Below are positions 6,557 through 50,937 of a stretch of 64,000 nt of DNA, in pieces. The DNA comes from a bacterium (GTDB lineage Bacteria > Bdellovibrionota_C > UBA2361 > CALJRW01). The notes beneath the pieces were generated by a model that saw only the letters and a list, made by a program, of their open reading frames with translations, had not been told where the DNA came from and ran no database searches. The position numbers and the translations under genes are program-made. Position 1 is the first letter of the stretch. Each line of letters starts with the position of its first letter. The stretch covers positions 18,511 through 82,510 of the forward strand of contig JANNBC010000025.1 in assembly GCA_031385045.1 (NCBI GenBank), in the 5' to 3' direction.

Positions 6557-7657
6557 TTAGGAAGCTTTGCCAAGATTAATTTCCAATGGCAGGATACCAG
6601 CCTTGATCCATGCCAACTTCAGCTCAGCTACTTTCTCTAGATTATCACCAAAAGCTAATCCACAATCTCCACCACCAGCACCTGAGAACTTAGAGGTAAA
6701 GCCATGTTGCTCAGCCAAAGTAATCAAGCACTGGAGTTCTTTGGTAATTAATGGAACTTTGCTTACTTTGGCGAGCTCTTTTAATAGTAAATGATTATTT
6801 TTAAGTCCGCTAAGAATTTCTAAAAGCTGACTATTTTTCCAGTCCATGATTAATTTTTTGGTATTATTCGCAATCTTTTGGTAGAGCTGCTCAATAATTA
6901 GTGGATGATTTTTTTGAAATTCATTCATCTCTGTGATTAATTTTGTGCTACTGGCGGAGCAACCAGTAAACCCAGTTAAGATAATTAATCCCACTGGAAG
7001 TGTTAGCTTTTCAATAGAACAATTTGGCCATTCCAGTTGAACTAGCTGCTCTAATTTCGTAGAATTAATTTTATTTACTAACCACTTACTATCAAATGTC
7101 GAGTAGGCGATTACTCCCCCATAAACTGCTGTGGCAATATCTAATCCGGAGCCTAGCTGGTTTTGTGCTTGAAAATGACTAATAATTGCCAACTTAAAGG
7201 TGAGATCTTCTAAATTAATTAAAGTTTTTTTAGGATGGAATTGTTGTAGTAGAGCAGAAGTTGTGGCAACTGTAATACCAGCAGAAGATCCCAAGCCAAA
7301 TTTTATTTTACCAGACTCGCTTTCTATAATAGTTTCTGAGCTATTAGTAGTTAACTCAAATCCGGAATCTAGATTTAAGTAGCTGGCTACCGTTTCAATA
7401 CTAGCCTTAATAAATATAATTTGCTGGGAAATTGTTGGAGTGAGAACTTCTCCAAAAATAAGCTTTTGATTTTTAAGTTCGCCAGAGATTCGCAAGTTAA
7501 AGTCTGGTAAGTTTAGAATCACTTGTTGATCTTTGCGTGGTTTTAAAAAGACGTGAACAAAGCGATCAACACTAGCGACAATAACTGGGTTACCACTTTC
7601 TAGTACCGACCATTCCCCAGCAATTACTAGTTTTCCAGGAGCACTAACTTTTAGCAT
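6557..7657 (-). CDS. mvaK2: Phosphomevalonate kinase (GHMP kinase family)
   Basis: The N-terminus APGKLVIAGEWSVLESG matches the PMK motif GKLYWAGEYAILEPG. A GHMP ATP-binding loop KFGLGSSAG is present. The gene is adjacent to the diphosphomevalonate decarboxylase gene with a 1-nt overlap. Confidence 0.6.
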   Translation of the reverse strand: MLKVSAPGKLVIAGEWSVLESGNPVIVASVDRFVHVFLKPRKDQQVILNLPDFNLRISGELKNQKLIFGEVLTPTISQQIIFIKASIETVASYLNLDSGFELTTNSSETIIESESGKIKFGLGSSAGITVATTSALLQQFHPKKTLINLEDLTFKLAIISHFQAQNQLGSGLDIATAVYGGVIAYSTFDSKWLVNKINSTKLEQLVQLEWPNCSIEKLTLPVGLIILTGFTGCSASSTKLITEMNEFQKNHPLIIEQLYQKIANNTKKLIMDWKNSQLLEILSGLKNNHLLLKELAKVSKVPLITKELQCLITLAEQHGFTSKFSGAGGGDCGLAFGDNLEKVAELKLAWIKAGILPLEINLGKAS

Positions 7658-8667
7658 TATTCTAGGTGATGATTAATAACCGTGGCAGCAGAGCCGACAT
7701 TAGTATAAATAATTTCTTTTAGTCCCACTAGTTTGCCTAAATAGTTTTCCACTTTTAATTGATCTTTTTTCTGATATAAGATTTTCACTTGCGGACCAGC
7801 ATCGATTGTAAAGTATGATTCCAAACGATTATTTTCACGAAGCTCCACAATTGTATTGGTAATTAGTTTTGTTGCCTCATTCCAATAATTAATTGGTGGG
7901 GTAGAGGCAATCATTGTGGCATGCATTTTGAGAGCATTTTTCTCAGCGACGGTTCCCATTAAAGTAAAATTCTTACTCAGGATAGCCTGCTCCATATCTT
8001 GTAAGTCTTTTTTAACAGTATCAAGCCAAGCTGTTTGATAAATTGGACAAGTCTTGACTGTTCTTTGCATTCCTTCTCTTGAAGAATAAATCTTTTCTCC
8101 GGTTGCCGTAATGGCAATTGCAATGCAAAGTTCCGGCCAGTGTTGTTGATCAGCAATAAAACCAATTTCGGAATCTGAGCCATCAGGAGCAACTCCCATT
8201 TGCCAATAGTTAAATCCTCCTAAGATCGATCTAGTCGCTGAGCCAGAGCCCATTCTCGCCATCTGGCTTAGTTTTTTATAATCTAAACCAAGCCCAAGTG
8301 CTTCGTTAAGAGCAACACTTAGGGCGGCAAAGCCCGAAGCGGAAGAAGCTAAACCAGCGCTAGTAGGGAAATTATTTTTTGTAATAATCCTAAGTTTTTC
8401 AGTAAACTTAAACTTATAGCGCATAATTTTCAGGTAGCTATTAAAGTACTCCTGAAAAACTTTAGATTCTGGACTAATTTCTTGGTCATTTAATTTTAGA
8501 GAATCAATACTAAGTTTTGGATCTAAGTGGATTGTTGTGTGGCTTGCTAAGTTTGCCAGTGTCACGCTAATACTGGAATTTAGGGGTAAAATCAGATTTA
8601 GATCGCGTTTGCCCCAGTATTTCACAAGGGCAATGTTTGGATGGGCTAAGGCAGATACAATTTTCAT
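7657..8667 (-). CDS. mvaD: Diphosphomevalonate decarboxylase
   Basis: The N-terminal PNIALVKYWGKRD motif and a GHMP fold. It is 336 aa, typical for mevalonate diphosphate decarboxylase. Confidence 0.8.
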   Translation of the reverse strand: MKIVSALAHPNIALVKYWGKRDLNLILPLNSSISVTLANLASHTTIHLDPKLSIDSLKLNDQEISPESKVFQEYFNSYLKIMRYKFKFTEKLRIITKNNFPTSAGLASSASGFAALSVALNEALGLGLDYKKLSQMARMGSGSATRSILGGFNYWQMGVAPDGSDSEIGFIADQQHWPELCIAIAITATGEKIYSSREGMQRTVKTCPIYQTAWLDTVKKDLQDMEQAILSKNFTLMGTVAEKNALKMHATMIASTPPINYWNEATKLITNTIVELRENNRLESYFTIDAGPQVKILYQKKDQLKVENYLGKLVGLKEIIYTNVGSAATVINHHLE

Positions 8668-9972: not shown

Positions 9973-12900
9973 TTAAAGTAGCTTCTTCCAAAGAGATTTT
10001 GATTTTTGGATATTAGTAATTGGTCCACTAAAAATAATTTCACCACCCAAGTCTCCAGCTCCCGGCCCCATTTCTATTAAATAATCAGAATATTTAATAA
10101 TTAAGGGGTCGTGTTCAATTAAAACTACACTATCACCACGATTAGTGATGTCTTTTAAGACTTTTAATAGCTTAAGAACATCTTGTTGGTGAAGGCCAAC
10201 GCTTGGTTCATCAAAAACATACAATGTATGTCCGCGGGGAGTTACGGCTAATTCTTCAGTTAATTTTAGTCGTTGTGCTTCACCACCAGAGAGTGTTGTT
10301 GATGTTTGTCCTAATGTTAGGTAGCCAAGGCCTAGATCACAGGCACTTTTTAAGAGTCGATAAATTTTAGGATAATTAGTAAATAGGTTTTTTGCTTCTT
10401 CAAAAGTTAAATTGAAAATTTCAGAAGCATTTTTATCTAAATACTTAATGCTTAATGTTTCGTCAGTATATCTTTTGCCCTGACAGAGTGGGCACTCAAT
10501 TTTAGCTTCAGCTAAAAAGCTCATCTCTAATTTCTGAGTCCCAGTACCATTGCATTCTGGACAACGGCCTCCAGTAGCTGAGTTATATGAAAAATAACTA
10601 GGCCCCCAACCACGAGTTTTTGCAAGGGGCATCTGAGCCAAAAGTTTTCGAATTTCGTCCCAGATTTTTAAATATGAGGCAGGAGTGGATCGTGAATTTT
10701 TACCAATCGGGGATTGATCTACAACTAGTAAGCGATCGATTGCTAGTTCTGTAGTAACCGAGGCTAGACTATTTTTCCAATGAAGATTTTTTAAGTTATC
10801 AATTGAATTAAGAAAAATATTATTTAGAAAGGTGCTTTTCCCAGATCCTGAGACGCCACAAATTGTTACTAGCGATTGAAGTGGAAAGGAGGCCTCCAGG
10901 GACTTAATATTATTAATAGCCTTGGAAGAGATTTTAACTAAAGGTTTATTCTCTATTGGGTTAGGAGACCAGTCAATTTGAGGGATTTTGTGAGTCGGAT
11001 ATTTTTTAACACTTCCATTATAAATAATCTGACCACCATCGCGACCTCCACCAGGGCCTAGTTCGATTAAATGATCGGCATAGTTAATTGTATCTTGATC
11101 ATGCTCGATTATATAAACAGAATTACCTTGATCTTTTAGTGTAGTAAATTCTTTTAATATTTTTCGATTATCATTCGGGTGTAATCCAGCACTTGGCTCA
11201 TCAAAGATATATAAAACACCATTTAGTGGGGAGCCCATGGAATTTGCTAACTTTAATCTCTGAAGTTCGCCCTTAGAAAGATCCTGACAACTGCGACTTA
11301 ATGGTAAATATTCTAAACCCAGACGTGTTAGTCGGTTAGTTCTAATTTTTATTTCAGAAATAATTGTATCGGCAATTTCTAATTGTTGCTCTGGAAACTT
11401 AATTTGTTCTAAAAAATTAGCTAGTTCAAGAGAATTTAATTTTGCTAGCTCAAAAATATTCTTTTTATTAATTTTAATATTTAGTGACGTTTGATTAATT
11501 CGGGTGCCCTGACAACTAGGACAGATTTTATCTGTAGCAGTTTTGCCGGAGCCAGAACATTTTACACAGCGACCGCGACGAGAATTAAAAGAAAAATCCT
11601 CCGGGTCAGGTTTTAGATATCCGCGATTACACTGAGGACAGCCACGTCTTGTACTTAGGATTTGATCTTGGCCCGCTACATTAGCAATGATATTCCCACC
11701 ACTCAAACTAATAATATCTCGAATAGCTTCAAGGATTAGATCTGCTGGGATTCGATTTGGGACAACTTTGGCATAAACAAATTCGATATTATGAACTTGG
11801 TTTCGACTAAGCCCTTCTTCAAAACGGCTAACTGGTCCAAAGATACCATCAACACGAACTTCTTCAATCTCGGATTTACGCGCCTGAATAAAAACGGGTC
11901 GATGATGGCCTTTCTTAGATTTAATAACTGGCACTAAAAGTTTAACAGTTTGCTCGCCAAACTGGAGGATCTTATTTAGAATTTGTTCCAAGCTAGAACT
12001 ACTTAATTCATATTCTGGATGATCAGGACAGTAAGGAGTGCCAACTTTCGCAAAGAGTAGTCTTAAAAAATTATAGATTTCACTAACAGTTCCGAGAGTA
12101 GAAAGTTTTCCAGGTTGGAATGTGTGCTGATAGACACAGATTGTTGGTCGTAAATTTTCGATGCTAGCAATCTGAGGCTTGGCTAATTCTTTAATAAATT
12201 GTCGGGCGTAGGGCGAAAGGCAATCCAAGTATTTTCTTTGTCCTTCGGCATAGACGATGTCCTTGGCAATCGTTGATTTTCCAGAGCCAGACACCCCAGT
12301 AAAAACAACAATCTCGTTATGTGGTATCTCCAGATCGATATTTTTTAAGTTATGTTCTTTCGCTGCGAATATTTTTAACTTACTAGAATCATGTTTGCTA
12401 GGTTTTTCCTTATCAAACTTTAACTTACTAGCTTGATATCTAGTAACATAACTTTGTAAATATTTAGCAGTTAAAGATTTCGTTTGATTTATTTTCTTTA
12501 AAAAGTCAGTAGGTGTTCCTTCTAGAACAACCTGCCCGCCATGCTTTCCACCCTCAGGTCCTAAATCAATAATCTGATCTGCTGCTAAGATAATATCTTG
12601 ATTGTGTTCAATACAAATAATTGAATGACCAGCATCGATCAATTCGTTAAAAACTAGTAATAGGTTTTTAACATCTTCCTGGCTCAGTCCGGTGGAAGGT
12701 TCATCAAATATTAATAGCGAATCTCCCCGAGTAGCTTTTTGAATAAATGGAACTAATTTTAAGCGTTGTGCTTCGCCACCAGAAAGCTGACTTAGCGGAT
12801 GACCTAAAGTTAGATGTCCCAGTCCTAATTTATTTAAACTTTGGCAAATGGCAAAAGCATCAAGGTGATTGATTAATAAATCCTGACATTCCGAAACTGT

Positions 12901-15234
12901 AGTTTTTAACCATTCGGCTACATTTCGATCTTGGTAGGTGACATCTAGTACGGAGTCTTGAAATCGTTGACCTAAGCAAAGATCACAGGTGACATAAACA
13001 TCACTTAAGAACTGCATCTCTTCTTTTAGATACCCAGCCCCCTTACAGTGTGGGCAGCGACCCCCCTCAACATTAAAAGAGAAAGTTGATTTGCTAAAAA
13101 GTTTTTGTTTGGCCAAAGGGCTATCGGCTAGTTCTTCTCGAATCATTTCCCAGAGCTTGCTATAAGTGGCAATATTTGAGCGAGGACTTTTAACAAGTGA
13201 ACTCTGATCTACTGCTAGTACTTGTTGAAATTGCTCCAGGCCTAGAACAGAAAACTTACTAGATGGATCTTGGCGTTGATTTTCCTGATAGGCTTTTAGA
13301 ATAACTTCAATTGCCAAACTACTTTTGCCACTTCCTGAAACCCCAGATAGAACAACTAAGCAGGAGAGTGGTATACGAAGGTCTATTTTTTTAAGATTCC
13401 TGACTCCTTCAACCTTGACAATTAGTTGACTAGGAGAACTTTTGCTATTCTTTTTGGGAGTTACTGGGATAAATTTATGCTTCCAATTACTTGGTGGCCC
13501 ATAGTAAACAACTTCGCCACCTAATTTCCCTGCTTTCGGGCCAAGGTGTAGGATTTGATCTGCTGCTAAGATACAATCGGGATCATGCTCAACCATTAGG
13601 ATACTATTTCCACGATTTTTTAATTCTTTTATTGCTTGCATTAAGCGTTCTGAATCCCGTGGGTGAAGGCCAACAGAGGGCTCATCTAAAACAAATTGGG
13701 TGGAAACTAATTCGCTACCAATTGCCGATACTAGATTGACTCGCTGAGTTTCTCCGCCTGATAAGGTCTTTGCTGGGCGGCTTAAGCTTAGGTAATCTAG
13801 CCCCAGATTGATCATCTGTTTAATCCTAGCAGTGCTTTGTTGAAAAACTGTTTCTAGTTCGAGAGATTTTGATTTGTTAACTAGTGGTTTTAAACCAGCA
13901 ATCCAATCTCCTAATTCGTTAATTGGTAGTTCACGGACTTCTGAGACATTCTGATTATTTAATCGAAACAGTAAGGCTTCAGACTTATTGCCACTTCCTT
14001 GGCAATCATCACAAATTACTGGAGAGCGGTATTTAGTAAGGTAGATTCGCACATAAGCTTTATAGGATTTACGCTCAATCTTTTTAAACCAGGGATTAAG
14101 TCCTAAATAACCTTTGCCTTCGTAATTAAAAATTAAATCTTTTTCCTCAGTAGATAACTTACTCCAAGGAAGATTGATTTTAATCTTATGATCGGAGGCA
14201 AACTTAATTAACTTTTCTTTTAAATTCTGAACGGCTGGTCCTTTCCAACAATCGACGGCATTTTCAATTAATGATAACTCTGGATCGATAATAATCTTTT
14301 TTGAATCCGGAATTAAATTAGCACCAAAACCTTTACAGTGTGGGCATGCTCCCAGTGGATTATTAGGGGAAAAAAGCCCAGGTTTGGGAATTGGGATTTT
14401 AATTTCTAAATTATCTTGAGCTGGATCCGAATAGAAAGAAGTAAAACGCTTAAAATTAATCTGTTCATTTTCTGGAATTGCTAGATAAGCAATTCCTTTT
14501 CCCAATTGATATGCCTGTTCAACTGCCTCAATTAAACGATGAGTTTTGCTTTGATTTGGTTTTAAGCGATCGATTAAAATATAAATTAAATCTTGATTGG
14601 CAAGTTGATTCAAATCTTCTGCTAATTTATACACATTAGCCGAATTGGGAATTAAAAAACGATTGTAACCCATCAGTTGTAAATTGTTTACTTGTTCCGC
14701 CAAGTCTTTTTTGGAAACTTTTTTGGCAGAGGATTTTTTCTTTGTTGTTAACTGGCAGGGAGCACAGATATATAAATAATCTGTTGCCAAGTTTAATCCT
14801 GAGATTAGTTCTGCGACTTCATTTGGTGAATGCTTTTGTAGAAGTTGTTGGTTAATTGGGGAATAGGGTAGTGCAAAATTGGCGAATAGAATTCCAAGAT
14901 AGTCATTTAGATCCGTTAAAGTTCCTACTGAAGATCGACTAGAATGGATTTTATTTTTTTGTTCAATAGCAATTGCTGGGCGAACATTCTCACTACTTTC
15001 TAAGTCCGGTTTTTTAACTTTGTCTAAGAATTGACGAACATATGAGGAAAACGTTTCTAAATAACGTCTTTGACCCTCGGCATAGATCGTATCAAAAGCT
15101 AAGGTTGATTTTCCCGAACCGGAGAGTCCTGTAACAGCAATTAACTGATCATGTGGAAGGGTAATACTTAAATCTTTTAAGTTATTTTCTTTGAGTCCAG
15201 TGAGTGATAAATGAAAATGTTTTTGTTCTGACAA
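9973..15234 (-). CDS. uvrA: Excinuclease ABC subunit A, tandem-duplicated (UvrA-UvrA fusion, 1753 aa)
   Basis: Four ABC ATPase Walker A sites (GLSGSGKSTLAFDTIYAEGQRRY, LSGVSGSGKSSLA, FTGVSGSGKSTIAKDIVYAEGQRKY, CGVSGSGKSTF). There are four LSGGE signature motifs and several CxxC zinc-finger pairs. This is two complete UvrA units in one frame. Confidence 0.8.
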   Translation of the reverse strand: MSEQKHFHLSLTGLKENNLKDLSITLPHDQLIAVTGLSGSGKSTLAFDTIYAEGQRRYLETFSSYVRQFLDKVKKPDLESSENVRPAIAIEQKNKIHSSRSSVGTLTDLNDYLGILFANFALPYSPINQQLLQKHSPNEVAELISGLNLATDYLYICAPCQLTTKKKSSAKKVSKKDLAEQVNNLQLMGYNRFLIPNSANVYKLAEDLNQLANQDLIYILIDRLKPNQSKTHRLIEAVEQAYQLGKGIAYLAIPENEQINFKRFTSFYSDPAQDNLEIKIPIPKPGLFSPNNPLGACPHCKGFGANLIPDSKKIIIDPELSLIENAVDCWKGPAVQNLKEKLIKFASDHKIKINLPWSKLSTEEKDLIFNYEGKGYLGLNPWFKKIERKSYKAYVRIYLTKYRSPVICDDCQGSGNKSEALLFRLNNQNVSEVRELPINELGDWIAGLKPLVNKSKSLELETVFQQSTARIKQMINLGLDYLSLSRPAKTLSGGETQRVNLVSAIGSELVSTQFVLDEPSVGLHPRDSERLMQAIKELKNRGNSILMVEHDPDCILAADQILHLGPKAGKLGGEVVYYGPPSNWKHKFIPVTPKKNSKSSPSQLIVKVEGVRNLKKIDLRIPLSCLVVLSGVSGSGKSSLAIEVILKAYQENQRQDPSSKFSVLGLEQFQQVLAVDQSSLVKSPRSNIATYSKLWEMIREELADSPLAKQKLFSKSTFSFNVEGGRCPHCKGAGYLKEEMQFLSDVYVTCDLCLGQRFQDSVLDVTYQDRNVAEWLKTTVSECQDLLINHLDAFAICQSLNKLGLGHLTLGHPLSQLSGGEAQRLKLVPFIQKATRGDSLLIFDEPSTGLSQEDVKNLLLVFNELIDAGHSIICIEHNQDIILAADQIIDLGPEGGKHGGQVVLEGTPTDFLKKINQTKSLTAKYLQSYVTRYQASKLKFDKEKPSKHDSSKLKIFAAKEHNLKNIDLEIPHNEIVVFTGVSGSGKSTIAKDIVYAEGQRKYLDCLSPYARQFIKELAKPQIASIENLRPTICVYQHTFQPGKLSTLGTVSEIYNFLRLLFAKVGTPYCPDHPEYELSSSSLEQILNKILQFGEQTVKLLVPVIKSKKGHHRPVFIQARKSEIEEVRVDGIFGPVSRFEEGLSRNQVHNIEFVYAKVVPNRIPADLILEAIRDIISLSGGNIIANVAGQDQILSTRRGCPQCNRGYLKPDPEDFSFNSRRGRCVKCSGSGKTATDKICPSCQGTRINQTSLNIKINKKNIFELAKLNSLELANFLEQIKFPEQQLEIADTIISEIKIRTNRLTRLGLEYLPLSRSCQDLSKGELQRLKLANSMGSPLNGVLYIFDEPSAGLHPNDNRKILKEFTTLKDQGNSVYIIEHDQDTINYADHLIELGPGGGRDGGQIIYNGSVKKYPTHKIPQIDWSPNPIENKPLVKISSKAINNIKSLEASFPLQSLVTICGVSGSGKSTFLNNIFLNSIDNLKNLHWKNSLASVTTELAIDRLLVVDQSPIGKNSRSTPASYLKIWDEIRKLLAQMPLAKTRGWGPSYFSYNSATGGRCPECNGTGTQKLEMSFLAEAKIECPLCQGKRYTDETLSIKYLDKNASEIFNLTFEEAKNLFTNYPKIYRLLKSACDLGLGYLTLGQTSTTLSGGEAQRLKLTEELAVTPRGHTLYVFDEPSVGLHQQDVLKLLKVLKDITNRGDSVVLIEHDPLIIKYSDYLIEMGPGAGDLGGEIIFSGPITNIQKSKSLWKKLL

Positions 15235-15264: not shown

Positions 15265-16230
15265 TTATTCTATTGTTTGATTTAAAGCATACGCGGAAAA
15301 GGCTGAACCGTAAAATGTAGACTGATCAAATAAAATCTTTTTGCTATTTGTCGCAGTGTCATGGATGGATGTCTTCCATCTCCAGATATAATCTTTCTCC
15401 ATGTGTTTAGCGGAAAGTTCTATCACTAATTTTTGTGAGACGTTAACGTCGATGCCATTTTCAAATGGAAAGAAGACACTGCCGTATACTTGGTTTTTAG
15501 CATCTGGCCCACAGGAATAGGAAACTGTTGAAGTTAGTTCACAGTCAAACCAAGCAAAAAACCCAAATAATGTTTCGTTTGAGCCAGTGAAGCTTACAGT
15601 TGAACGATGAGAATAGTCTTGGATCTTTGTATAATCGAGCTGACACCAGAGGCTTGGTTTTGCTGAAAGCATTTCCTGCTTGATTGGTAAGGGGTAGAAG
15701 GTATTGCAGAGATATTTTTCGTAGGCCTTGGTCGTAAATGGAAATTTTTGGTTTAAAAACGGTCTAACTTTCTGATTGAAAATATTTTTATCGCGACAAG
15801 GAGCCAAGTAGATCTTATCAATACTTGGTAGAAGTTTACCTGTTGGTTTTAAGAATTTCTCTTGTGCTAATTTCATGATCTTTAAATTATCTTCGTAGAA
15901 GGGAAGTTTTCCTCTTAAGTCGGCAATAATCAGATCAACTTGCGAAAAATTTAAATTCTCAATTTTTTCTTCATAGAATTCCACTCGGTCCTCAAATTTA
16001 TTTTCTTTCACGAGCTCTCGAGCGATTTGAATCGCAGGGTTAGGTTCGACAGCGATTACTTTTTTAGCTCCGAGAGAACATGCCAGGAGCGTAAAGCCTC
16101 CAGTGCCTGCGCCTAAGTCTAGGACAATAGTTTCTGGTGTAATAATTTCCGCTAATGCTTTAGCATAAGCCGGAACTCTTACTGGGTCAGCTAACATTTG
16201 AGAGAAGTGGCGAGGACTATAAGTATTCAT
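15265..16230 (-). CDS. Class I SAM-dependent methyltransferase, PRMT-like
   Basis: Motif I VLDLGAGTGGFTLLACSLGA and post-I VIAVEPNP. VDLIIADLRGKLPFYED resembles the PRMT motif II/double-E loop (VDIIISEWMGYCLFYES). LKPTGKLLPS resembles PRMT motif III. A roughly 150-aa C-terminal beta-rich region is consistent with a PRMT barrel. Confidence 0.55.
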   Translation of the reverse strand: MNTYSPRHFSQMLADPVRVPAYAKALAEIITPETIVLDLGAGTGGFTLLACSLGAKKVIAVEPNPAIQIARELVKENKFEDRVEFYEEKIENLNFSQVDLIIADLRGKLPFYEDNLKIMKLAQEKFLKPTGKLLPSIDKIYLAPCRDKNIFNQKVRPFLNQKFPFTTKAYEKYLCNTFYPLPIKQEMLSAKPSLWCQLDYTKIQDYSHRSTVSFTGSNETLFGFFAWFDCELTSTVSYSCGPDAKNQVYGSVFFPFENGIDVNVSQKLVIELSAKHMEKDYIWRWKTSIHDTATNSKKILFDQSTFYGSAFSAYALNQTIE

Positions 16231-16335
16231 TAGATAGATTATTACTGGTGATCTTTTGAAGGATCAACTGCTAGTCTAGGTTATTAATCAGATAATGAGA
16301 ACTAAATTTAGAGTAAGAGAGGATTGGAACAAATA

Positions 16336-16476
16336 CTATGTTTGCATACCAAAAAAATCAGCTGACATTGAGCCACCAAATTTAGTTAACTCTTTAAGCG
16401 AGCCATATTTAATTAGTTTAGGCTTTTGATAAGTTTTTTTTTCTTTTTTAGTATCTGGGGTTTTCTTATCTTCCAT
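16336..16476 (-). CDS. Unannotated 46-aa precursor-like peptide MEDKKTPDTKKEKKTYQKPKLIKYGSLKELTKFGGSMSADFFGMQT (lasso-type leader motif)
   Basis: Found by hand translation of the 286-bp gap between the PqqD-like gene and the methyltransferase gene. ATG at 16476 is the first start after an in-frame stop, and TAG is at 16338-16336. The Lys-rich leader contains Y16-x2-P19-x-L21-x3-G25-x5-T31-K32. A 14-aa C-terminal segment FGGSMSADFFGMQT follows. It lies on the same strand as, and between, the RRE and the MTase. Confidence 0.5.
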   Translation of the reverse strand: MEDKKTPDTKKEKKTYQKPKLIKYGSLKELTKFGGSMSADFFGMQT

Positions 16477-16516
16477 AGGTTACATTATAATTTAAAATTT
16501 AAGTTATGTGAAGCAA

Positions 16517-16801
16517 TTAAATGAGAGTAATAACCTCGGCTTCCAGTAGGCCTTGAATCAGGTTAATTAAGTCTTGCTGTAAATCTGCTTCATTAACCTC
16601 GTAATCTTCCGCTAGTAATTTAGATGCTTCTAGGATAGAGGAGGACTCTACTAGCCTCATGTAAAAAGCATAGCCGGTGGAATCTAGGCCATAGTAGTTG
16701 TTATTCTTCAAATTTAGCAACACGCAGGTATCATCAAGTTGTTTAACTAGGACATCGTCTTGAGCTACAACTTGACTTTGTAGATTGATATTCACAGCCA
16801 T
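16517..16801 (-). CDS. PqqD-family peptide chaperone / RiPP recognition element (RRE)
   Basis: 94 aa. VLVKQLDDTCVLLNLKNNNYYGLDSTGYAFYMRL...LAEDYEVNEADLQQDLINLIQGLLEAEVI follows the PqqD (PF05402) pattern. That pattern is 'dgevvLLnlesgeyygLNetgarIWelL...ydvdeeeleaDvlaFleeLleagli'. Confidence 0.75.
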   Translation of the reverse strand: MAVNINLQSQVVAQDDVLVKQLDDTCVLLNLKNNNYYGLDSTGYAFYMRLVESSSILEASKLLAEDYEVNEADLQQDLINLIQGLLEAEVITLI

Positions 16802-16806
16802 TTAAA

Positions 16807-17592
16807 TTACTCTAAAGTGTATTTCTCTAGAGAAATATCAATTCCACCTTCGGAGATGTACTTGGCAATGATATTAGCATTAAAGCAACCAGGGAATTCC
16901 GGACAAAGTACAACTGTGAAACTAGAATCTTCTTTAATATCTTCTTTTTTAATTGTTTTGGTAAAGATAATTTCCTCAGGATTTCCTTTTTTGAAAACCT
17001 TTAAAAGTAAGCTTTGATAATCTGTTTCTTCAGTAGAAAAACTACAAAACAATTGACCACTTTGCGGGGCAAATAAAACCTGATCTGATCCGGCTTGGTA
17101 CGCTGGTATATTCTTGCCTTTAAGTTCGCAGTTACCAGAAAATAGACCTGTCACAATATTTGTTTCTTCGTAAGTTGGAGGTAGCACAAGATCAACTGGT
17201 AATGGCTCAGTTGGTAAATTAGCCTCAGAGGCAAATGTTAATGTCGCATTTAAGCAGTCCTGAATCCCATCACGAATTAATTGCTTGGTGGCTATTTGGG
17301 ATTCCATTTTCCGCTTAAGTTTATTACTAGACTCTTTTTTTAGGTCAGCTTTTAGAAGTTTGATTTCTTTTACTACCTGTTTTCGAAGTTTTAGGGCTTG
17401 GCGGTCAGTAAACTCCCGGACATTTTTTTCCAGTCCATCCTGTGTAAAAGTTTTAATCAAGACAGAATTGCTATTTTCTTTGCAAAAATAAGACTTAGTT
17501 TTACTAATTATTGCAATTCTTTGATCTTCAGCCTGGGCACTTAGACTTAACAAAAGGACTAATGGTAATATGTATTTTAGTTTTATGTTCAC
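16807..17592 (-). CDS. Secreted hypothetical protein (signal peptide, 5 Cys in C-terminal half)
   Basis: MNIKLKYILPLVLLLSLSAQA is a signal peptide. No recognisable catalytic motif. It is co-directional with, and 5 nt upstream of, the PqqD-like gene. Confidence 0.45.
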   Translation of the reverse strand: MNIKLKYILPLVLLLSLSAQAEDQRIAIISKTKSYFCKENSNSVLIKTFTQDGLEKNVREFTDRQALKLRKQVVKEIKLLKADLKKESSNKLKRKMESQIATKQLIRDGIQDCLNATLTFASEANLPTEPLPVDLVLPPTYEETNIVTGLFSGNCELKGKNIPAYQAGSDQVLFAPQSGQLFCSFSTEETDYQSLLLKVFKKGNPEEIIFTKTIKKEDIKEDSSFTVVLCPEFPGCFNANIIAKYISEGGIDISLEKYTLE

Positions 17593-17741: not shown

Positions 17742-20700
17742 ATGTCTCATAAGTCGTTTCTCGCTCTTTTTTTATTTTTCCTAGCTAATCTGCTGGAAGC
17801 TCAGGCTCCAGGGAACGTTACAGCTAACTTTCCGCTTTGGTTAAAGGCTAATGCTGGGACGTCTACCACAACAGATGGTGTGGGTGTTCAGACATGGACG
17901 GATCAGGCAACAGCATTGGGAGGAAGTAATAATGCTACTCAAGCTACAGCAGCCAATCGACCACTCTATAAAAGTCTTACTCCAATTAATTTTAATCCTT
18001 ACATTCGTTTTGATGGAGTTAGTGATCGCTTTCAGATTGCCTCCAATACTAGCATTAATAACGTAGCCAGTCTTACTAAGTCTGTATATTATGCCTTTCG
18101 AACTGGTAGTAGCGTGATTTCTCCTGTCAGGCAGTTAATTTATAAAGAACGAAATCATCAGTCGGGTTTTAACTTATACCTATATAACGGGAATCTTTAC
18201 TGTTCAGCTTTTAAAACAAATACAGCACCAACATGGCCATGGAAGGGGAATAGTGTTGCCGCCACGCCTAACACTACTTATGTTGTAAGTTTTATTATGA
18301 ATGGGACTGCAGCTAATGCTGGAACGATTGCTTGCTATGTTAATAGTTCTCAGTTTGCGAATCTTACAGGTGTTGGTCAAATTCAAGCTGTAAATGCCAT
18401 TAGTAATATAGGTTCTAGAGAATTACGAACGAACTATGAAGGTGTTCAGGTTGCAAATGCTAATGCTGATTTTTCCGCCGTCGATTTTAGCGAAATTGCT
18501 TATTATAATGCTGCTCATACAACGGCAGAGCGCAATAAAATTGAGTCCTATCTGGGGGTAAAGTATGGAGTAACTCTTAATCAAACTGTTGCTAATAATT
18601 ACACCAACAGTGCTGGAACTGTAATTTTTAATGCTACAGGTACGCATAATTCTTATCGCAATGATATTGCCGGTATTATGATTGATACAAATTCTGGCCT
18701 TAGTCAATTACAGTCGAAATCTGTCAATACTGATGCAATCGTAACAATGTCCACAGCTTCTGCCATGGCGAATACTGAATCACTGCTCTGGGGGAATGAC
18801 AACGACGATAATGGTGTGATTCAGGAAATCTATACGGGGATTCCTGCTGGCGTTGCCGCTAGATTAGATCGAGTTTGGAGAGCCGATCAAACTGGTGATG
18901 TTGGGACTGTTACGATCACTTTTAACTTAAATGGCATTGCAGTGTCTGGAACCTCTGCCAGTCAATTTCGTTTGCTGGTTGATTCGGTTAATAGTGATTT
19001 TACATCAGGTGCTACCCAAGTAAATGCTGCCACATATTCTGGTGGAATTGTAACTTTTAATAATGTTGATTTTACTGGGGATGATTATTTTACATTAGTA
19101 ACTTATGTCACACCTAGTCCTCCTACCGTTACGTTAACTACTAATTCTAGTACTATTTTGGAAAATGGTGGGGTGGCAACTCTGACAGCAACCCTAAGTA
19201 ATATTTGGACATCCGCCGTAACTGTTAATTTAAGTTATAGTGGAACAGCTACAAACGTGACTGATTATTCTAGATCAGGAGCATCTATTACAATCCCTAT
19301 TAATTCCTTAAGTGGTTCAGTTACGCTTACGGCAATTGATGATGCTTTTAGTGAAGGAGCGGAAACTGTCATTACCGATATTAGTTCGGTTTCTGGAGGT
19401 GGTACGGAGAGCGGGGTGCAACAAGTTACAGTCACTATTACTGATGATGAGCCTGTTAATAATGCTTGCAGTGGTCAGGAGCGTATATTCACTACGGAAT
19501 TAGCAAGTGGTGATGTTAATACTTATAGTATTGCTGGGGTTTATCAAGCAACCTCAACCTCAGCCTATACTCAAAACTATGAAATGATAATCGATCCAGA
19601 TAATAATTATCGTTATCTAGCATCCTATGGCAACCTTCGAATTACTAGAGCTAACTTTGATGGAACAGGGGAGATAACTCTTTTTAATACATCTCTGTAT
19701 TCAGCAAATCCTCCTTTTCAAGTTACAATTAATCCAAACCAAGGCAAAATTTATTGGACAGATTGGGCAGCAAATACAGCTAACATTTTTTGTGCCAATC
19801 TTGATGGTACGGGAACACCAGTTGCCATCGCTACGGGATTAAATTACCCGACTGGTATGCAGATCGATAAAAACACAGGGCGTTTATATGTTTACTTTGG
19901 TCTTAATGCGCCTATTACCTTAACTACAGCTCTGACTAACGGAAGTTGTGGTGCAATTACTTTAGCAACACTTTTAAATACGGGACTAGACTTAGCTTAT
20001 AATTTAACAATCGATCCTCCAGGAAATCGACTTTTCTTTGTAGATTACAACTCACAAACGATCAAAAAGGTTAATACAGATGGTACTTCTTTAGTTACTC
20101 TCCGAACTTTAACTGCTCCTGGGGACCAGATGCGGGATATCGTTTATAATAAGAATACTAATAACCTTTACTGGGTTCACACTAATGGTGTGATTCAGCG
20201 AGCCTTGGCCGATGGAACTGGTGGGATTACAACTGTTGTTGCCAGTGGTCAGCCTGATAGTCGTTCGATTGATATTTGTGTTGATGATGCTGCTCCACGT
20301 CTAAGTCGTTTTTATAGTACTTCAGCTAACAGTCGCTATTGTCCGATTGTTCCAATTAATAGCATTGATATTCGTGCGGTTTATGATGAATCGGTTGTTG
20401 CAGGTTCGACGATCACGGTGCAATTAAACAATGGGGCGAATGTCGTTTTGAGTTCAATCACAGGGAATGAAATATCTGGAACTTATACTGTCGGTGCTAC
20501 TGGTAGTGGTCAAACAATTGCTGATTTATCTGTTGCCAGTATTGTTAGTGAGTCTGTTTTAGATGTTAATAATAATACGCGAGTTAATTCTACAGTTCCA
20601 GCTAGTCCAAATAACTTAGGAGATTCTTCCAATATTGTTGTTGATACTTCTGCTCCTGTGATTACAGAAGTAACGCCCGTAGCTTCTCCAACAATAAATC

Positions 20701-22388
20701 GTAATCCAACATATGTTATTAACTCTAGTGAGGTGGCAACAATTTCCTTTGGTGGTTCATGTAATAGTGTTACCACTAGTTTAGTAGCGGGGAATAACAC
20801 AATTACTTTGGATTCTAATGGCGCGGGAGGACAGTTAGCTGATGGGGTTTACAGTAACTGTACGATAACAGTGACCGATGCTTCTGCTTGTAATACTACG
20901 AATTATAATATTTCTGCTTTTACAGTGGCAGCGACAGTTCCAACTGTCACTCTTAGTCGAAATTTTGCAACGATTAATGAAGCTGCTGGAGTAGCAACTT
21001 TTACAGCCACCTTGATTAATACCTATGCCTTAGCAACGACTGTTAATCTTAGTTTTAGTGGAACAGCAGGCGGTAGTGATTATTCTGCTTCTAATACTCA
21101 GATTGTGATTCCAGCACTTAGTACTACTGGGACGATTACAGTTACAGCAACTGAGGATCTTTTGGTTGAAAGTACTGAAACAGTCATCGTTGATATCTCA
21201 ACAGTTACAAATGGAACTGAAAGTGGTGTGCAACAGGCTTCAACTTCAATCTTAGATAATGATTCTCCATCTTCTGTAACACTTTCAACAAACCTCAGTA
21301 GTATCTCAGAAGCTGGCGGAGTAGCAATTTTAACCGCGACACTAAATACTCTTAGTGCATTAAATGTAACAGCAAATTTAACCTACACGGGAACGGCAGC
21401 TAATGGCACTGATTATACAGCCGCGACTAGTATCGTAATTACGGCAGGTAGTCTTTCCGCTAGTATTAATTTAACCGGACTAGAAGATGCTACTTTTGAA
21501 GTCACAGAAACAGCTATCGTTGATATTAGTAGTGTTACTAATGGTACAGAAGCTGGTGTTCAGCAAGTAACAGTGAGTATTACAGAGGATGCTGTTTGTA
21601 ATCAGCCTGCTTGGCCGGCTCCTCATGGATTAACCAAATATATTGCCATGAGTTTTGAGCGAACTTTTGCTTCCACTAATGGATATGTGCCGCCAAGTGG
21701 TGATGCTTTTGATACTTACCTTGCTCGAAACCAAACTCAAAAAGATGCTAAGCGTGATAGTGCCTATGCCTTTTTCTTAAGCGAGTATGGACTTGATTTT
21801 GCAAATGATGGAATTTCTTGCCCAGGGGGAATTTGTATTATGAATGGGCCTGATGCTCAAGTCATGCTTCGTTACATAAGTTTTGATAGTAATTTTCAAG
21901 CTAAGATTAATGCTGCAAGTAGTTACAAAGTTGATACTTCTGGTGGTGATTTAAGAGCTGGTATTTATCAGGTACTTACTTTTGATACTGAAAATATGTC
22001 TGGCAATGATGGTACAATTTTAAATGGTGCTTGGGGTGGAGGCCCCGGTAAACTAGTTCCTCGTGGTACAGTTTTAGAGTACGGTGAATATCAACTCCAA
22101 ATTTTATATCCTTGCACAGATGCCCCTAATCCAAACTTTACTAGAACCGATACCTTTTTAGTTGAATTTCAAAGTCAGAAACCAAGTTTAGCTGATTTTA
22201 ATGAGGATAACGGAGCTTTCTTTCTTGATATTCCACAAATTTTTGAATATGAAATTACAAATGTAACTCCTAATTTTCCTACAGGATTTGTGAATGGTGA
22301 GATAATTGGTCGGACTGAGATTAGGCAAGATCCTGCTAGTCCTTATAACGTTACCGCTATTTCTAGTGTTACTTTGACAGTTCCTTAG
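17742..22388 (+). CDS. Giant secreted surface protein (1548 aa) with LamG-like N-terminal region, three Calx-beta-like repeats and a YWTD/NHL-type beta-propeller
   Basis: A signal peptide MSHKSFLALFLFFLANLLEAQA. Three repeats of about 105 aa each end in VTVTITDDE, STSILDNDS or VTVSITEDA (the Calx-beta signature). Propeller blades show KIYWTDW, RLYVYF, RLFFVDY and NLYWVH motifs. The protein is very Thr/Ser/Asn/Gly-rich. Confidence 0.75.
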   Translation: MSHKSFLALFLFFLANLLEAQAPGNVTANFPLWLKANAGTSTTTDGVGVQTWTDQATALGGSNNATQATAANRPLYKSLTPINFNPYIRFDGVSDRFQIASNTSINNVASLTKSVYYAFRTGSSVISPVRQLIYKERNHQSGFNLYLYNGNLYCSAFKTNTAPTWPWKGNSVAATPNTTYVVSFIMNGTAANAGTIACYVNSSQFANLTGVGQIQAVNAISNIGSRELRTNYEGVQVANANADFSAVDFSEIAYYNAAHTTAERNKIESYLGVKYGVTLNQTVANNYTNSAGTVIFNATGTHNSYRNDIAGIMIDTNSGLSQLQSKSVNTDAIVTMSTASAMANTESLLWGNDNDDNGVIQEIYTGIPAGVAARLDRVWRADQTGDVGTVTITFNLNGIAVSGTSASQFRLLVDSVNSDFTSGATQVNAATYSGGIVTFNNVDFTGDDYFTLVTYVTPSPPTVTLTTNSSTILENGGVATLTATLSNIWTSAVTVNLSYSGTATNVTDYSRSGASITIPINSLSGSVTLTAIDDAFSEGAETVITDISSVSGGGTESGVQQVTVTITDDEPVNNACSGQERIFTTELASGDVNTYSIAGVYQATSTSAYTQNYEMIIDPDNNYRYLASYGNLRITRANFDGTGEITLFNTSLYSANPPFQVTINPNQGKIYWTDWAANTANIFCANLDGTGTPVAIATGLNYPTGMQIDKNTGRLYVYFGLNAPITLTTALTNGSCGAITLATLLNTGLDLAYNLTIDPPGNRLFFVDYNSQTIKKVNTDGTSLVTLRTLTAPGDQMRDIVYNKNTNNLYWVHTNGVIQRALADGTGGITTVVASGQPDSRSIDICVDDAAPRLSRFYSTSANSRYCPIVPINSIDIRAVYDESVVAGSTITVQLNNGANVVLSSITGNEISGTYTVGATGSGQTIADLSVASIVSESVLDVNNNTRVNSTVPASPNNLGDSSNIVVDTSAPVITEVTPVASPTINRNPTYVINSSEVATISFGGSCNSVTTSLVAGNNTITLDSNGAGGQLADGVYSNCTITVTDASACNTTNYNISAFTVAATVPTVTLSRNFATINEAAGVATFTATLINTYALATTVNLSFSGTAGGSDYSASNTQIVIPALSTTGTITVTATEDLLVESTETVIVDISTVTNGTESGVQQASTSILDNDSPSSVTLSTNLSSISEAGGVAILTATLNTLSALNVTANLTYTGTAANGTDYTAATSIVITAGSLSASINLTGLEDATFEVTETAIVDISSVTNGTEAGVQQVTVSITEDAVCNQPAWPAPHGLTKYIAMSFERTFASTNGYVPPSGDAFDTYLARNQTQKDAKRDSAYAFFLSEYGLDFANDGISCPGGICIMNGPDAQVMLRYISFDSNFQAKINAASSYKVDTSGGDLRAGIYQVLTFDTENMSGNDGTILNGAWGGGPGKLVPRGTVLEYGEYQLQILYPCTDAPNPNFTRTDTFLVEFQSQKPSLADFNEDNGAFFLDIPQIFEYEITNVTPNFPTGFVNGEIIGRTEIRQDPASPYNVTAISSVTLTVP

Positions 22389-37640: not shown

Positions 37641-38768
37641 CTAAATCTGAAAGTTTACTAGAGTGGCAGGGATAATAACTGCCTGTCCCACTGGTATTGG
37701 GTATACTTGATAATCTACTGTGACACTAGCTTCTCCTGCTAGGCAGAAAATTAGTTGAAGCTGATCCTTAGTTGTAAAGATCTGATCAAGGGTTTGTGCA
37801 AATTTACCAATCTTAAAAAAATCATTATCGGGAATTTTGTAAAAGCTTAGTTCGAAGGTCGGGTTAAGCGTTAGAATCTGAGGAACTTGTTCTTGAAAGT
37901 CTAACATTGAAAGTAGAGTTTTCTGATCAATATATTTATGTGTTAATCCTCCGCGCACCACATTATCTGAAGGAGCCATACATTCTAATAATTCACCTGA
38001 TAGGTAAGCATGGGGAATATTAGAATTAATAAACAATGCTCCTCCCGGTTCTACGATTACAAAATTGAGTAAATAAAAGCAGAAGATACCAAGATCGCCA
38101 TTTGGGTATCTTGCTTCTAATTTTATAATCTCTTTCTCAAGTTCTGAAGGGACATTCTTTAATTTAAGCCTGGCAAATAGTTTTTGGGATTCTGATTTAA
38201 TTAGTTCAGCATCCGTATTTACAAGTCGTTGATAGATTTTTTGATAAGTTAGGTCAGCAAGATCCTCAAGGATATTCTTAAATTCTGGAATAAAGCTTTC
38301 ATCTTCCTCATTTAGGAAGTTTAATATTTCAGACTGAGCTCTAAAACCATAAAGCAGCTTAACGGGGGAGATGGCAATTCCAACTTCTGGTTTTGGAAAT
38401 CTATCGGGGTAATTTTTAGGATCATTAGCGTGAAGGATTGGCGCGCGCTGGGCATCTGGGTGTGCTTGAATAGATAGCGCTTCATTTACAGAGAGGACTT
38501 TAAAGAGAAAGGGGAGACTGGCTCCAAATTTTCCTAGCACCTCTTTCCCTAATATTGCCGGAGTAAATTTAATTTCTTCTAAAAGGTTATTTGGGGAATC
38601 TGTAATTTTAGCTGGCGCTTTAGGGTGAGTTCCAAACCAAAGTTCCGCAAACTTTCCTGTTTTTGATTCGTAGCCAAAAGGATTAGAAATGATCGAAGTT
38701 TCATCTTTTCCCCAATCATATTCTTGAACGATGCCTTTGATCTTGATTATTGGGGATTTTATAGTCAT
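37641..38768 (-). CDS. manA: Mannose-6-phosphate isomerase, type I
   Basis: YDWGKDE, ELWFGTHPKAPAKI and LSIQAHPD cupin motifs of PMI class I. Confidence 0.75.
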   Translation of the reverse strand: MTIKSPIIKIKGIVQEYDWGKDETSIISNPFGYESKTGKFAELWFGTHPKAPAKITDSPNNLLEEIKFTPAILGKEVLGKFGASLPFLFKVLSVNEALSIQAHPDAQRAPILHANDPKNYPDRFPKPEVGIAISPVKLLYGFRAQSEILNFLNEEDESFIPEFKNILEDLADLTYQKIYQRLVNTDAELIKSESQKLFARLKLKNVPSELEKEIIKLEARYPNGDLGIFCFYLLNFVIVEPGGALFINSNIPHAYLSGELLECMAPSDNVVRGGLTHKYIDQKTLLSMLDFQEQVPQILTLNPTFELSFYKIPDNDFFKIGKFAQTLDQIFTTKDQLQLIFCLAGEASVTVDYQVYPIPVGQAVIIPATLVNFQI

Positions 38769-49428: not shown

Positions 49429-50937
49429 ATGAAAAATAAATTTTTAATTGTGCCTTATCTCTTGTTTGCCATAGCCATTGGCATGCTTGCCTATCGTCAC
49501 TTTGTATTAAAAGCAAAATTTTTGCCTGTTATTACTAATGATACCTGGAAGCTTGATGTTACTGTGGACGCCGAAGAGTTGGCCTCTGCTAAGGTTATTA
49601 AGCTAAATATTCCAAGTAGTTTAACAAAGGCTAAGATTATCCAAGAAGGTTATAGTCAAACAGTTCAAGGCTTAACTGTTTTTGAAAGTAACGGAATTCG
49701 AACGTTAGTTTGGTCAAATCGTTCTACTGATAATTCTATACCAGAGAAAGCCTTTAGTTACTCTACAGTATTACAGCAAGGCACGAACGGCATAGAAATC
49801 CCAGCAAACTTATCTCAGCTTTCGGTTGATCTTGTTACTGATTATCCGGGTTATGATCCAGAGTTAATAGGGAAGTTTATTAGAGAGATTAAACAGGATA
49901 ATCATAATTTTGCTTTAGAATTGGGAGAATGCTTTGCCGATAATGAATGTTTAGTAGCAAATACAGGAATTAGTAAATCTCTATCAATGCGCAAAAAAGC
50001 AATTCTATTGCTAAATATTCTTCGGCAACAAAATTATCAAGCAGCTGTTGCACGGGGATTTTTCCCTGAGAAGCCAACTAAAGACACCAGCTTTATCTAT
50101 TGGGTACGGGCAGAAAAAGATCAAAAGGTCTATAACGTTTTTCTAGACTCCGAGATTCGTAGTGGCCAGCAAGTACTTTTTTGGGATTTTTTAGATGAGC
50201 TTAATCAAGTCCCTCATTCTGTTAAGATGCAGTATTCAATTCTACCAGATGAAAATTATAATTTTCTTAAGCCTCAAAAAGAAGTTATCCATAGCAAGTT
50301 TTTTGATTTAATTTCGCTACATGACTTACCAGCCTCTGTGCAGGTTGTTTATCGCGTTATGTTACTGATTCCACTTGGAGCATTAATTGTTGCCTTTACT
50401 CGGATTATTATTGGAGTTTCAGCCTTTGGTACGTTTATGTCGGTCTTAGTAGCTTTATCTTTTAATCAGGTAGGTTTGAAAGTTGGCTTACTGTTGTTAC
50501 TGATTATGATAGTTGCTGGACTAATGTTCCGTGGACTGATGAGTAAAATGCGCTTGCTTTCGGTTGCTCGAATTTCTTGTACATTAATCTTTGTGATTAT
50601 GTCGATTGCTGTGATTAGTAAGATTTCATGGAGTTTTAATTTCGTCGAAGGATTTTCAGCAACACTTTTTCCAATTATTGTAATTTCCATGATGATTGAG
50701 CGAATGTCGATTATGATTGAAGAGGCTGGGATACGTCCAACTATTAAAAATTTGATCAATACAATTATCATGTCTTCTGTGATCCATTTAGTAATGTCTT
50801 TAAAGATTGTGCAGTACTGGAGCTTTAGTTTCTGGGAAATGCATATTGTGACGATGGCACTTTTAATGCTGATTGGAAGGTATAATGGGTATCGTCTAAG
50901 CGAATTGTTTCGTTTTCGTAACTTAGTCAATAAATAG
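49429..50937 (+). CDS. Inactive transglutaminase-like domain fused to 7TM domain
   Basis: An N-terminal TM, a periplasmic domain of about 300 aa with no Cys-His-Asp triad, then 7 TM helices (aa 300-500). This is the architecture of the 7TM-transglutaminase family that accompanies RimK-like ATP-grasp genes. Confidence 0.5.
   Translation: MKNKFLIVPYLLFAIAIGMLAYRHFVLKAKFLPVITNDTWKLDVTVDAEELASAKVIKLNIPSSLTKAKIIQEGYSQTVQGLTVFESNGIRTLVWSNRSTDNSIPEKAFSYSTVLQQGTNGIEIPANLSQLSVDLVTDYPGYDPELIGKFIREIKQDNHNFALELGECFADNECLVANTGISKSLSMRKKAILLLNILRQQNYQAAVARGFFPEKPTKDTSFIYWVRAEKDQKVYNVFLDSEIRSGQQVLFWDFLDELNQVPHSVKMQYSILPDENYNFLKPQKEVIHSKFFDLISLHDLPASVQVVYRVMLLIPLGALIVAFTRIIIGVSAFGTFMSVLVALSFNQVGLKVGLLLLLIMIVAGLMFRGLMSKMRLLSVARISCTLIFVIMSIAVISKISWSFNFVEGFSATLFPIIVISMMIERMSIMIEEAGIRPTIKNLINTIIMSSVIHLVMSLKIVQYWSFSFWEMHIVTMALLMLIGRYNGYRLSELFRFRNLVNK

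Follow-up and report, generated by a model that had tools for sequence, protein, structure and literature searches.

A conserved lasso-family precursor gene in a reduced RRE-precursor-methyltransferase locus of Bdellovibrionota

Lasso peptide gene clusters that carry a kinase and an NTP transferase have been described previously, together with the polysaccharide context in which they lie (PMC9266682, PMC8498205, PMC10368454, PMC13381572). The phosphorylated lasso clusters include those of paeninodin and pseudomycoidin, the SyanA/SyanK system of Sphingobium and the bsf cluster of Bradymonas sediminis (PMC9266682, PMC8498205, PMC10368454). A functional cyclase-less RiPP system related to lasso peptides is represented by the linear polyphosphorylated peptides (LPP) of Bacillota (Popov et al. 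2026, PMC13381572), and a precedent for a split lasso operon is provided by the cebulassopins, as cited in PMC13381572 (ref 28) and PMC13352647 (ref 363). The lasso methyltransferases covered by reviews are C-terminal carboxyl O-methyltransferases and PIMT homologues (PMC9266682, PMC8498205, PMC10368454, PMC13381572, PMC13352647); no PRMT-fold enzyme is listed among them in those reviews, including the 2026 review PMC13352647. Our own literature search found no description of the PRMT-fold methyltransferase family discussed below as a lasso tailoring enzyme.

We analyzed a 64-kb stretch of DNA (hereafter, the window), in which a short ORF had been predicted to encode a lasso-type precursor. 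This ORF is the third of five minus-strand genes in a row, which encode a 261-aa protein, a PqqD-family RRE, the precursor (A), a methyltransferase and UvrA, and the lasso locus of this lineage is reduced to B1, A and the methyltransferase. The precursor gene (16336-16476, minus strand) comprises 46 codons plus a stop codon (16338-16336), with the translation MEDKKTPDTKKEKKTYQKPKLIKYGSLKELTKFGGSMSADFFGMQT. Residues 1-32 (nt 16476-16381) form the leader and residues 33-46 (nt 16380-16339) the predicted core, FGGSMSADFFGMQT. Translation reproduced the original prediction exactly as regards the ORF itself, the positions of Y16, P19, L21, G25 and T31, the leader composition (11 Lys and no Arg) and the identity of core residue 8 as Asp. 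The description of the ORF as hidden did not survive, since an identical 46-aa protein is already called as a gene product in both NCBI and Logan protein sources. The ORF is single-copy in the window, and its core sequence occurs in none of the papers searched. The calculated [M+H]+ values are 1482.603 for the linear core, 1464.592 for the dehydrated macrolactam and 1317.524 for the alternative ring starting with Gly, to which each methyl group would add 14.016.

The proposed lasso leader is borne out by profile searches, in which the precursor passes the NF033521 lasso_leader_L3 model (25.5 bits against a cutoff of 19), and by orthologues with the same core that are encoded beside cyclase, B1 and B2 genes. 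The NF033528 lasso_cyano model is a near miss (31.9 bits against a cutoff of 33), and the precursor falls outside this subfamily as NCBI defines it. Two features expected of lasso precursors are present, namely the RRE-binding Y/WxxPx[L/V/I] motif (Y16-x-x-P19-x-L21) and a Thr at position -2 (T31); given the predicted cleavage after K32, Asp8 also supplies the Asp or Glu expected at core position 7, 8 or 9. The motif Y..P.L...G.....T. was found once in a six-frame translation of the window, at the precursor ORF. Of 200 sequences simulated from the window with a first-order Markov model, four contained the motif (mean 0.02 per sequence) and none contained it together with an acidic residue at core positions 7-9, so that the leader motif exceeds chance expectation.

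The homologue set comprises 12 members, ten of them clusters from the protein search and two recovered by cluster look-up. The small ORF is therefore kept in related genomes, and all 12 homologues share the leader YxxPKLxxYGSLKELTK and the core FGGS[M/A]xxDFFG[MQ/QR]x. There are 21 invariant columns, including Y16, P19, L21, G25, T31, K32, F33, G34, G35, S36, D40, F41, F42 and G43. Precursor identity between the window and L006 (a Bdellovibrionota MAG described below) is 91%, and the two genes differ by 13.5 synonymous and 5.5 non-synonymous changes (dN/dS 0.059); housekeeping proteins of the two are 85-97% identical, with synonymous sites saturated. The precursor gene is thus real and under purifying selection, and it belongs to a leader/core family that is found in complete lasso clusters elsewhere. 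A metagenome scan with the precursor alignment returned 357 pattern matches, none of which was confirmed. Three loci from the DNA pattern scan (L012-L014) were discarded as chance matches, as no cluster genes are present there.

The precursor ORF lies 40 nt downstream of the gene (16517-16801, minus strand) for a 94-aa PqqD-family RRE of lasso B1 type (PF05402, E 1.2e-11), in agreement with the adjacency originally claimed. The best matches of this protein are curated lasso PqqD models, yet it scores below their cutoffs (42.1 against 80 and 37.8 against 70); it should be noted that these two NCBIfam lasso-B1 models are taxon-specific. Among solved structures, those of the lasso B1 proteins TbiB1 (E 1.6e-6) and TfuB1 are the nearest matches, and the protein is 46% identical to B1 of the complete cluster L002. 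With 49-51% identity to its counterpart in the sister genome, it is the fastest-evolving gene of the neighborhood (others 65-97%). The gene for the lineage-specific 261-aa protein, which has a predicted signal peptide and was considered as a candidate component of the system, is located at 16807-17592 (minus strand) and ends 5 nt before the PqqD start. Apart from a hydrophobic N-terminus, this protein showed no known family in Pfam or NCBIfam, and its AlphaFold model has a pLDDT of 50. It is syntenic in the sister genome and 72% identical in L006/L007; only one homologue was found among 5.8 billion clusters, and the protein is absent from the complete lasso clusters. On the other side, 105 nt separate the precursor gene from that of the methyltransferase (15265-16230, minus strand). 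UvrA (9973-15234, minus strand) starts 31 nt further downstream and is a double-length protein of 1753 aa, in which a complete UvrA (residues 8-930, 1632 bits) is followed by a second UvrA-like half. This layout is syntenic in the sister MAG, with 87% identity, and the double-length UvrA is probably housekeeping.

In tblastn searches of the window and of 20 kb from the sister contig, no cyclase, B2 or kinase gene was detected, nor a remnant of one; the three query sets of C, B2, K and N proteins, divergent from one another, returned only noise. Likewise, Pfam analysis of the large ORFs of the window found no Asn-synthetase-like cyclase, B2 or kinase, and no transporter gene adjoins the locus. 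Of the genes that define a lasso cluster, a B1 gene next to the precursor is present, and cyclase and B2 genes are missing within the 64 kb. Since the window contains neither of these two, lasso formation in this organism is a matter that we infer. The sole transglutaminase-related ORF of the window (49429-50937, plus strand, 502 aa) lies 33 kb from the locus and was rejected as a B2 candidate, as it corresponds to an "inactive transglutaminase fused to 7 TM helices" (PF14402/PF14400). No Rfam family was detected in the window, and GC content shows no anomaly across the locus, so that nothing points to recent transfer. Divergent from the locus, the window encodes a 1548-aa Calx-beta/LapA-like surface protein (17742-22388, plus strand), at whose position the sister MAG has a 1222-aa protein with other Pfam domains. 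The region 6557-8667 (minus strand) carries mevalonate-pathway genes (phosphomevalonate kinase and diphosphomevalonate decarboxylase), here in a Bdellovibrionota genome.

The absence of a Shine-Dalgarno sequence before the precursor ORF, remarked on in the original prediction, was confirmed, and such sequences are rare across the window (8 of 57 ORFs). A putative Sigma-70-like promoter (16484-16512, minus strand; TTCACA-17 nt-TATAAT, 11/12 matches) is the best site in the region. It lies wholly inside the 40-nt spacer between PqqD and A, and its -10 box ends 7 nt before the ATG. A TATAAT/TAGAAT box is also found 6-8 nt before the ATG in L006/L007, L015/L016, L002, L003 and L001. This geometry suggests that the precursor mRNA is leaderless or near-leaderless, which would explain the missing Shine-Dalgarno sequence. 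We found no convincing terminator 3' of the precursor. Across the window, a -10-like hexamer is located 4-10 nt before the start codon of 11 of the 57 ORFs, four of these hexamers being a perfect TATAAT; examples are the ORFs at 7657-8667, 16807-17592 and 37641-38768, all on the minus strand. Leaderless transcripts may be common in this lineage.

Among metagenomic relatives, the precursor gene directly follows the lasso cyclase (Asn_synthase) gene in L001, L002, L003/L004 and L017. The complete layout is B2 (on the opposite strand) / B1-C-A-HprK-related kinase-(PRMT-fold methyltransferase)-NTP_transf_5, and these complete clusters are embedded in Wzy/glycosyltransferase polysaccharide loci. 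The B2 protein of L002 passes NF033537 (48 bits against 33). The cyclases of these loci share only 27-36% mutual identity and the core is nearly unchanged among them, which indicates a far stronger constraint on the peptide than on the enzymes. Such a near-invariant core indicates that the target or role of the peptide is under tight constraint, probably endogenous and connected with the polysaccharide loci. The reduced B1-A-methyltransferase triad is intact in three lineages, represented by the window, L006/L007 and L015/L016. L006 (= L008), from the Bdellovibrionota MAG JTS-AC222 (GCA_041740355.1), has the same order of 261-aa protein, PqqD, A, methyltransferase and UvrA, and in L015/L016 the PqqD C-terminus, A and the methyltransferase are directly adjacent. 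Our genome scan returned at least one close relative (the sister MAG) and three distant ones. The methyltransferases of the three reduced lineages share 64-65% identity among themselves and 51-52% with that of L002. Given this divergence and the intact triads, the reduced locus has persisted over a long period, and it is the derived form, since the more distant methyltransferase homologues are all found in complete clusters.

The methyltransferase is a 321-aa SAM-dependent protein with matches to Methyltransf_31, PrmA and PRMT_C. PRMT1 structures match residues 10-264 at E 3e-23, and CARM1 structures match as well. The protein is 53% identical to its homologue in L002 and 65% identical to that in L006. 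Like PRMT1 and CARM1, it combines a Rossmann domain with a C-terminal beta-barrel; unlike them, it carries the family signature [S/A]D[L/I]RG-x-LP in place of the double-E loop and xYG in place of the THW loop, so that it has a PRMT fold and is not a canonical PRMT. The position of the first Glu is occupied by [S/A]D[L/I]RG, and the second Glu position is variable. Among the best 145 representatives, D-[LIM]-[RH]-G is present in 120 and SEWMG in none. The family comprises at least 517 clusters at 50% identity (E <= 1e-30). All contexts examined outside the reduced clade (L002 and four other lineages) are complete lasso clusters, including N-D-C-A-K-MT-B1-B2 in Mameliella, B1-B2-C-A-K-MT-N in Candidatus Acidoferrum and C-A-K-MT in a Verrucomicrobiota MAG; L021 is also a methyltransferase-carrying lasso cluster.

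Arginine methylation of the window peptide was considered and rejected, as the precursor contains no Arg and the Arg-binding motifs of PRMTs are not conserved in the enzyme. Met is present in every core from clusters that carry this methyltransferase (the Bdellovibrionota family, L010, L018, L019 and L021), often as M-Q or M-N near the core C-terminus, and there is no Met in the cores of two clusters that lack it, L001 (FGGSAAADFFGQRT) and L009. In this small and partly related sample, a Met-containing site, possibly the C-terminal M-Q, is a lead for the methylation site.

Cleavage after K32 is predicted from the Thr(-2) rule and from the relatives of the precursor. When the same rule is applied to other precursors, L009, L010 and L018 have an acidic residue at core position 8 and L021 has one at core position 9; L019 is an exception, with its first acidic residue at core position 10. 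Since acidic residues fall at position 8 or 9 in relatives, a ring between F1 and D8, as originally proposed, is favored and fits the wider family, and cleavage after Phe, which had been offered as an alternative and would yield a ring starting with Gly, is less likely, as it would place the Thr at -3.

Phe as the first core residue is, to our knowledge, unusual among characterized lasso peptides; the fusilassin core begins with Trp. Sungsanpin and chaxapeptin (15 aa) are short class II lasso peptides with an 8-residue X1-Asp8 ring, and the ring of microcin J25 is formed between G1 and E8. The peptide predicted here would resemble all three in having an 8-residue ring closed by the acidic residue at position 8 and a short tail with bulky aromatics directly after the ring. 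It would differ from them in its 14-residue core and in having Phe instead of Gly as the first residue.

Taken together, we consider that the ORF encodes a translated lasso-family precursor that is converted into a mature lasso peptide by B1, the methyltransferase, B2 and the cyclase, the last two assumed to be encoded elsewhere in the genome, and we assign this reading a probability of about 0.6. According to this model, the precursor gene would have a promoter to itself and give rise to a leaderless or near-leaderless mRNA, and the PqqD/B1 protein would bind the YxxPxL part of the Lys-rich leader. The PRMT-fold methyltransferase would then tailor the peptide, with a Met-containing site, possibly the C-terminal M-Q, as the lead target. 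A B2 cysteine protease would cut after Thr31-Lys32, and an Asn-synthetase-like cyclase would link the Phe1 amine to the Asp8 side chain, both enzymes being supplied from elsewhere in the genome by assumption. The predicted product is a lasso of 14 residues, eight of them in the ring, with FFGMQT as the tail.

The rival that survives best, which we regard as possible and clearly less probable than the split lasso pathway, is that the triad functions without a cyclase: the RRE would present the leader to the methyltransferase and a housekeeping protease would remove the leader, leaving a linear methylated peptide, a lasso-derived RiPP comparable to the LPPs. In favor of this reading, three lineages retain an intact triad under purifying selection with C, B2 and K cleanly absent, its spacers are short (40 and 105 nt), and the locus no longer lies in a polysaccharide context as the complete clusters do; moreover, LPP clusters show that a lasso-type RRE, kinase and NTP transferase can be kept without a cyclase (PMC13381572). 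However, the triad comes with no linked leader peptidase, in contrast to LPP clusters with their dedicated SpI-like enzyme, and the methyltransferase homologues seen outside the clade are all in complete lasso clusters. The peptide itself also speaks against a linear product. Thr(-2) and Asp8, on which B2 cleavage and ring closure depend, are still invariant in both reduced and complete clusters, and the pattern of core substitutions is the same in the two groups (S6A and T14A/S in the reduced clade; S6T/A, A7S and T14G/S in complete clusters), which suggests that both share the same mature product. It is possible, at the lower probability given above, that in this Bdellovibrionota clade the lasso cluster was cut down to an independent, cyclase-free pathway to a linear methylated 14-mer. 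The methyltransferase would then be an RRE-dependent enzyme whose chemistry is so far undescribed in RiPPs, such as methylation at a Met-containing site.

It is improbable, in view of the selection data, that the locus represents the decay of a former lasso cluster whose peptide is no longer made or has no function. The local absence of essential enzymes would be expected under decay, as would the rapid evolution of PqqD (49% identity, against 65-97% for others), but the ratio of B1 to methyltransferase divergence is similar in complete clusters. Furthermore, the three ORFs are intact in three lineages despite saturated synonymous sites, the low dN/dS of the precursor (0.059) and the conserved promoter geometry are at odds with decay, and C, B2 and K have left no pseudogene fragments. 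Finally, a chance open frame, or the antisense plus-strand ORF as the real gene (confirmed at 16295-16429, 44 aa), might be suspected from a short ORF in AT-rich DNA without a Shine-Dalgarno sequence, but such readings are already contradicted and of negligible probability, as the variable columns across six loci (10/5/29 by codon position) fit the minus-strand frame, the plus-strand frame is not conserved and carries stops in L015, L002, L003 and L017, the HMM matches are significant, the motif is rare in simulations, and Shine-Dalgarno sequences are scarce throughout the window.

As a precursor, the peptide is unremarkable within a known RiPP class. The triad of RRE, precursor and methyltransferase, conserved without a cyclase, provides a natural test that sets split lasso clusters against evolution toward linear RiPP pathways; if the cyclase-free pathway is real, it would be the second independent RiPP class, after LPPs, to bud off lasso biosynthesis. 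In addition, a large PRMT-fold family sits in lasso clusters in all contexts examined, and its target residue in the window peptide cannot be Arg.

Compared with the phosphorylated lasso clusters, the complete relatives of this locus show the same discrete B1 and B2, C, short A, HprK-related kinase and NTP_transf_5 genes, and both are often embedded in polysaccharide loci; a Y/WxxP RRE motif in the leader and a Thr at -2 are also shared. Unlike those clusters, the window is devoid of C, B2, K and N, the family includes a PRMT-fold methyltransferase that is absent from the descriptions in those papers, and the host belongs to the phylum Bdellovibrionota. The peptides end in T, S, A or G here, and not in the conserved phosphorylated Ser of paeninodin-type peptides. 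With cebulassopins, as they are cited in the two papers named above, the window would share the distribution of lasso biosynthetic genes over more than one locus, which is what we propose for it. In common with LPP clusters, the locus has a lasso-type discrete RRE, a YxxP leader and, within the window, no macrolactam cyclase. However, LPP clusters retain a kinase together with an NTP transferase, an exporter and the SpI-like leader peptidase, whereas here the RRE is accompanied by the methyltransferase only, with no linked peptidase, and LPP cores are variable, in contrast to the near-invariant core of this family.
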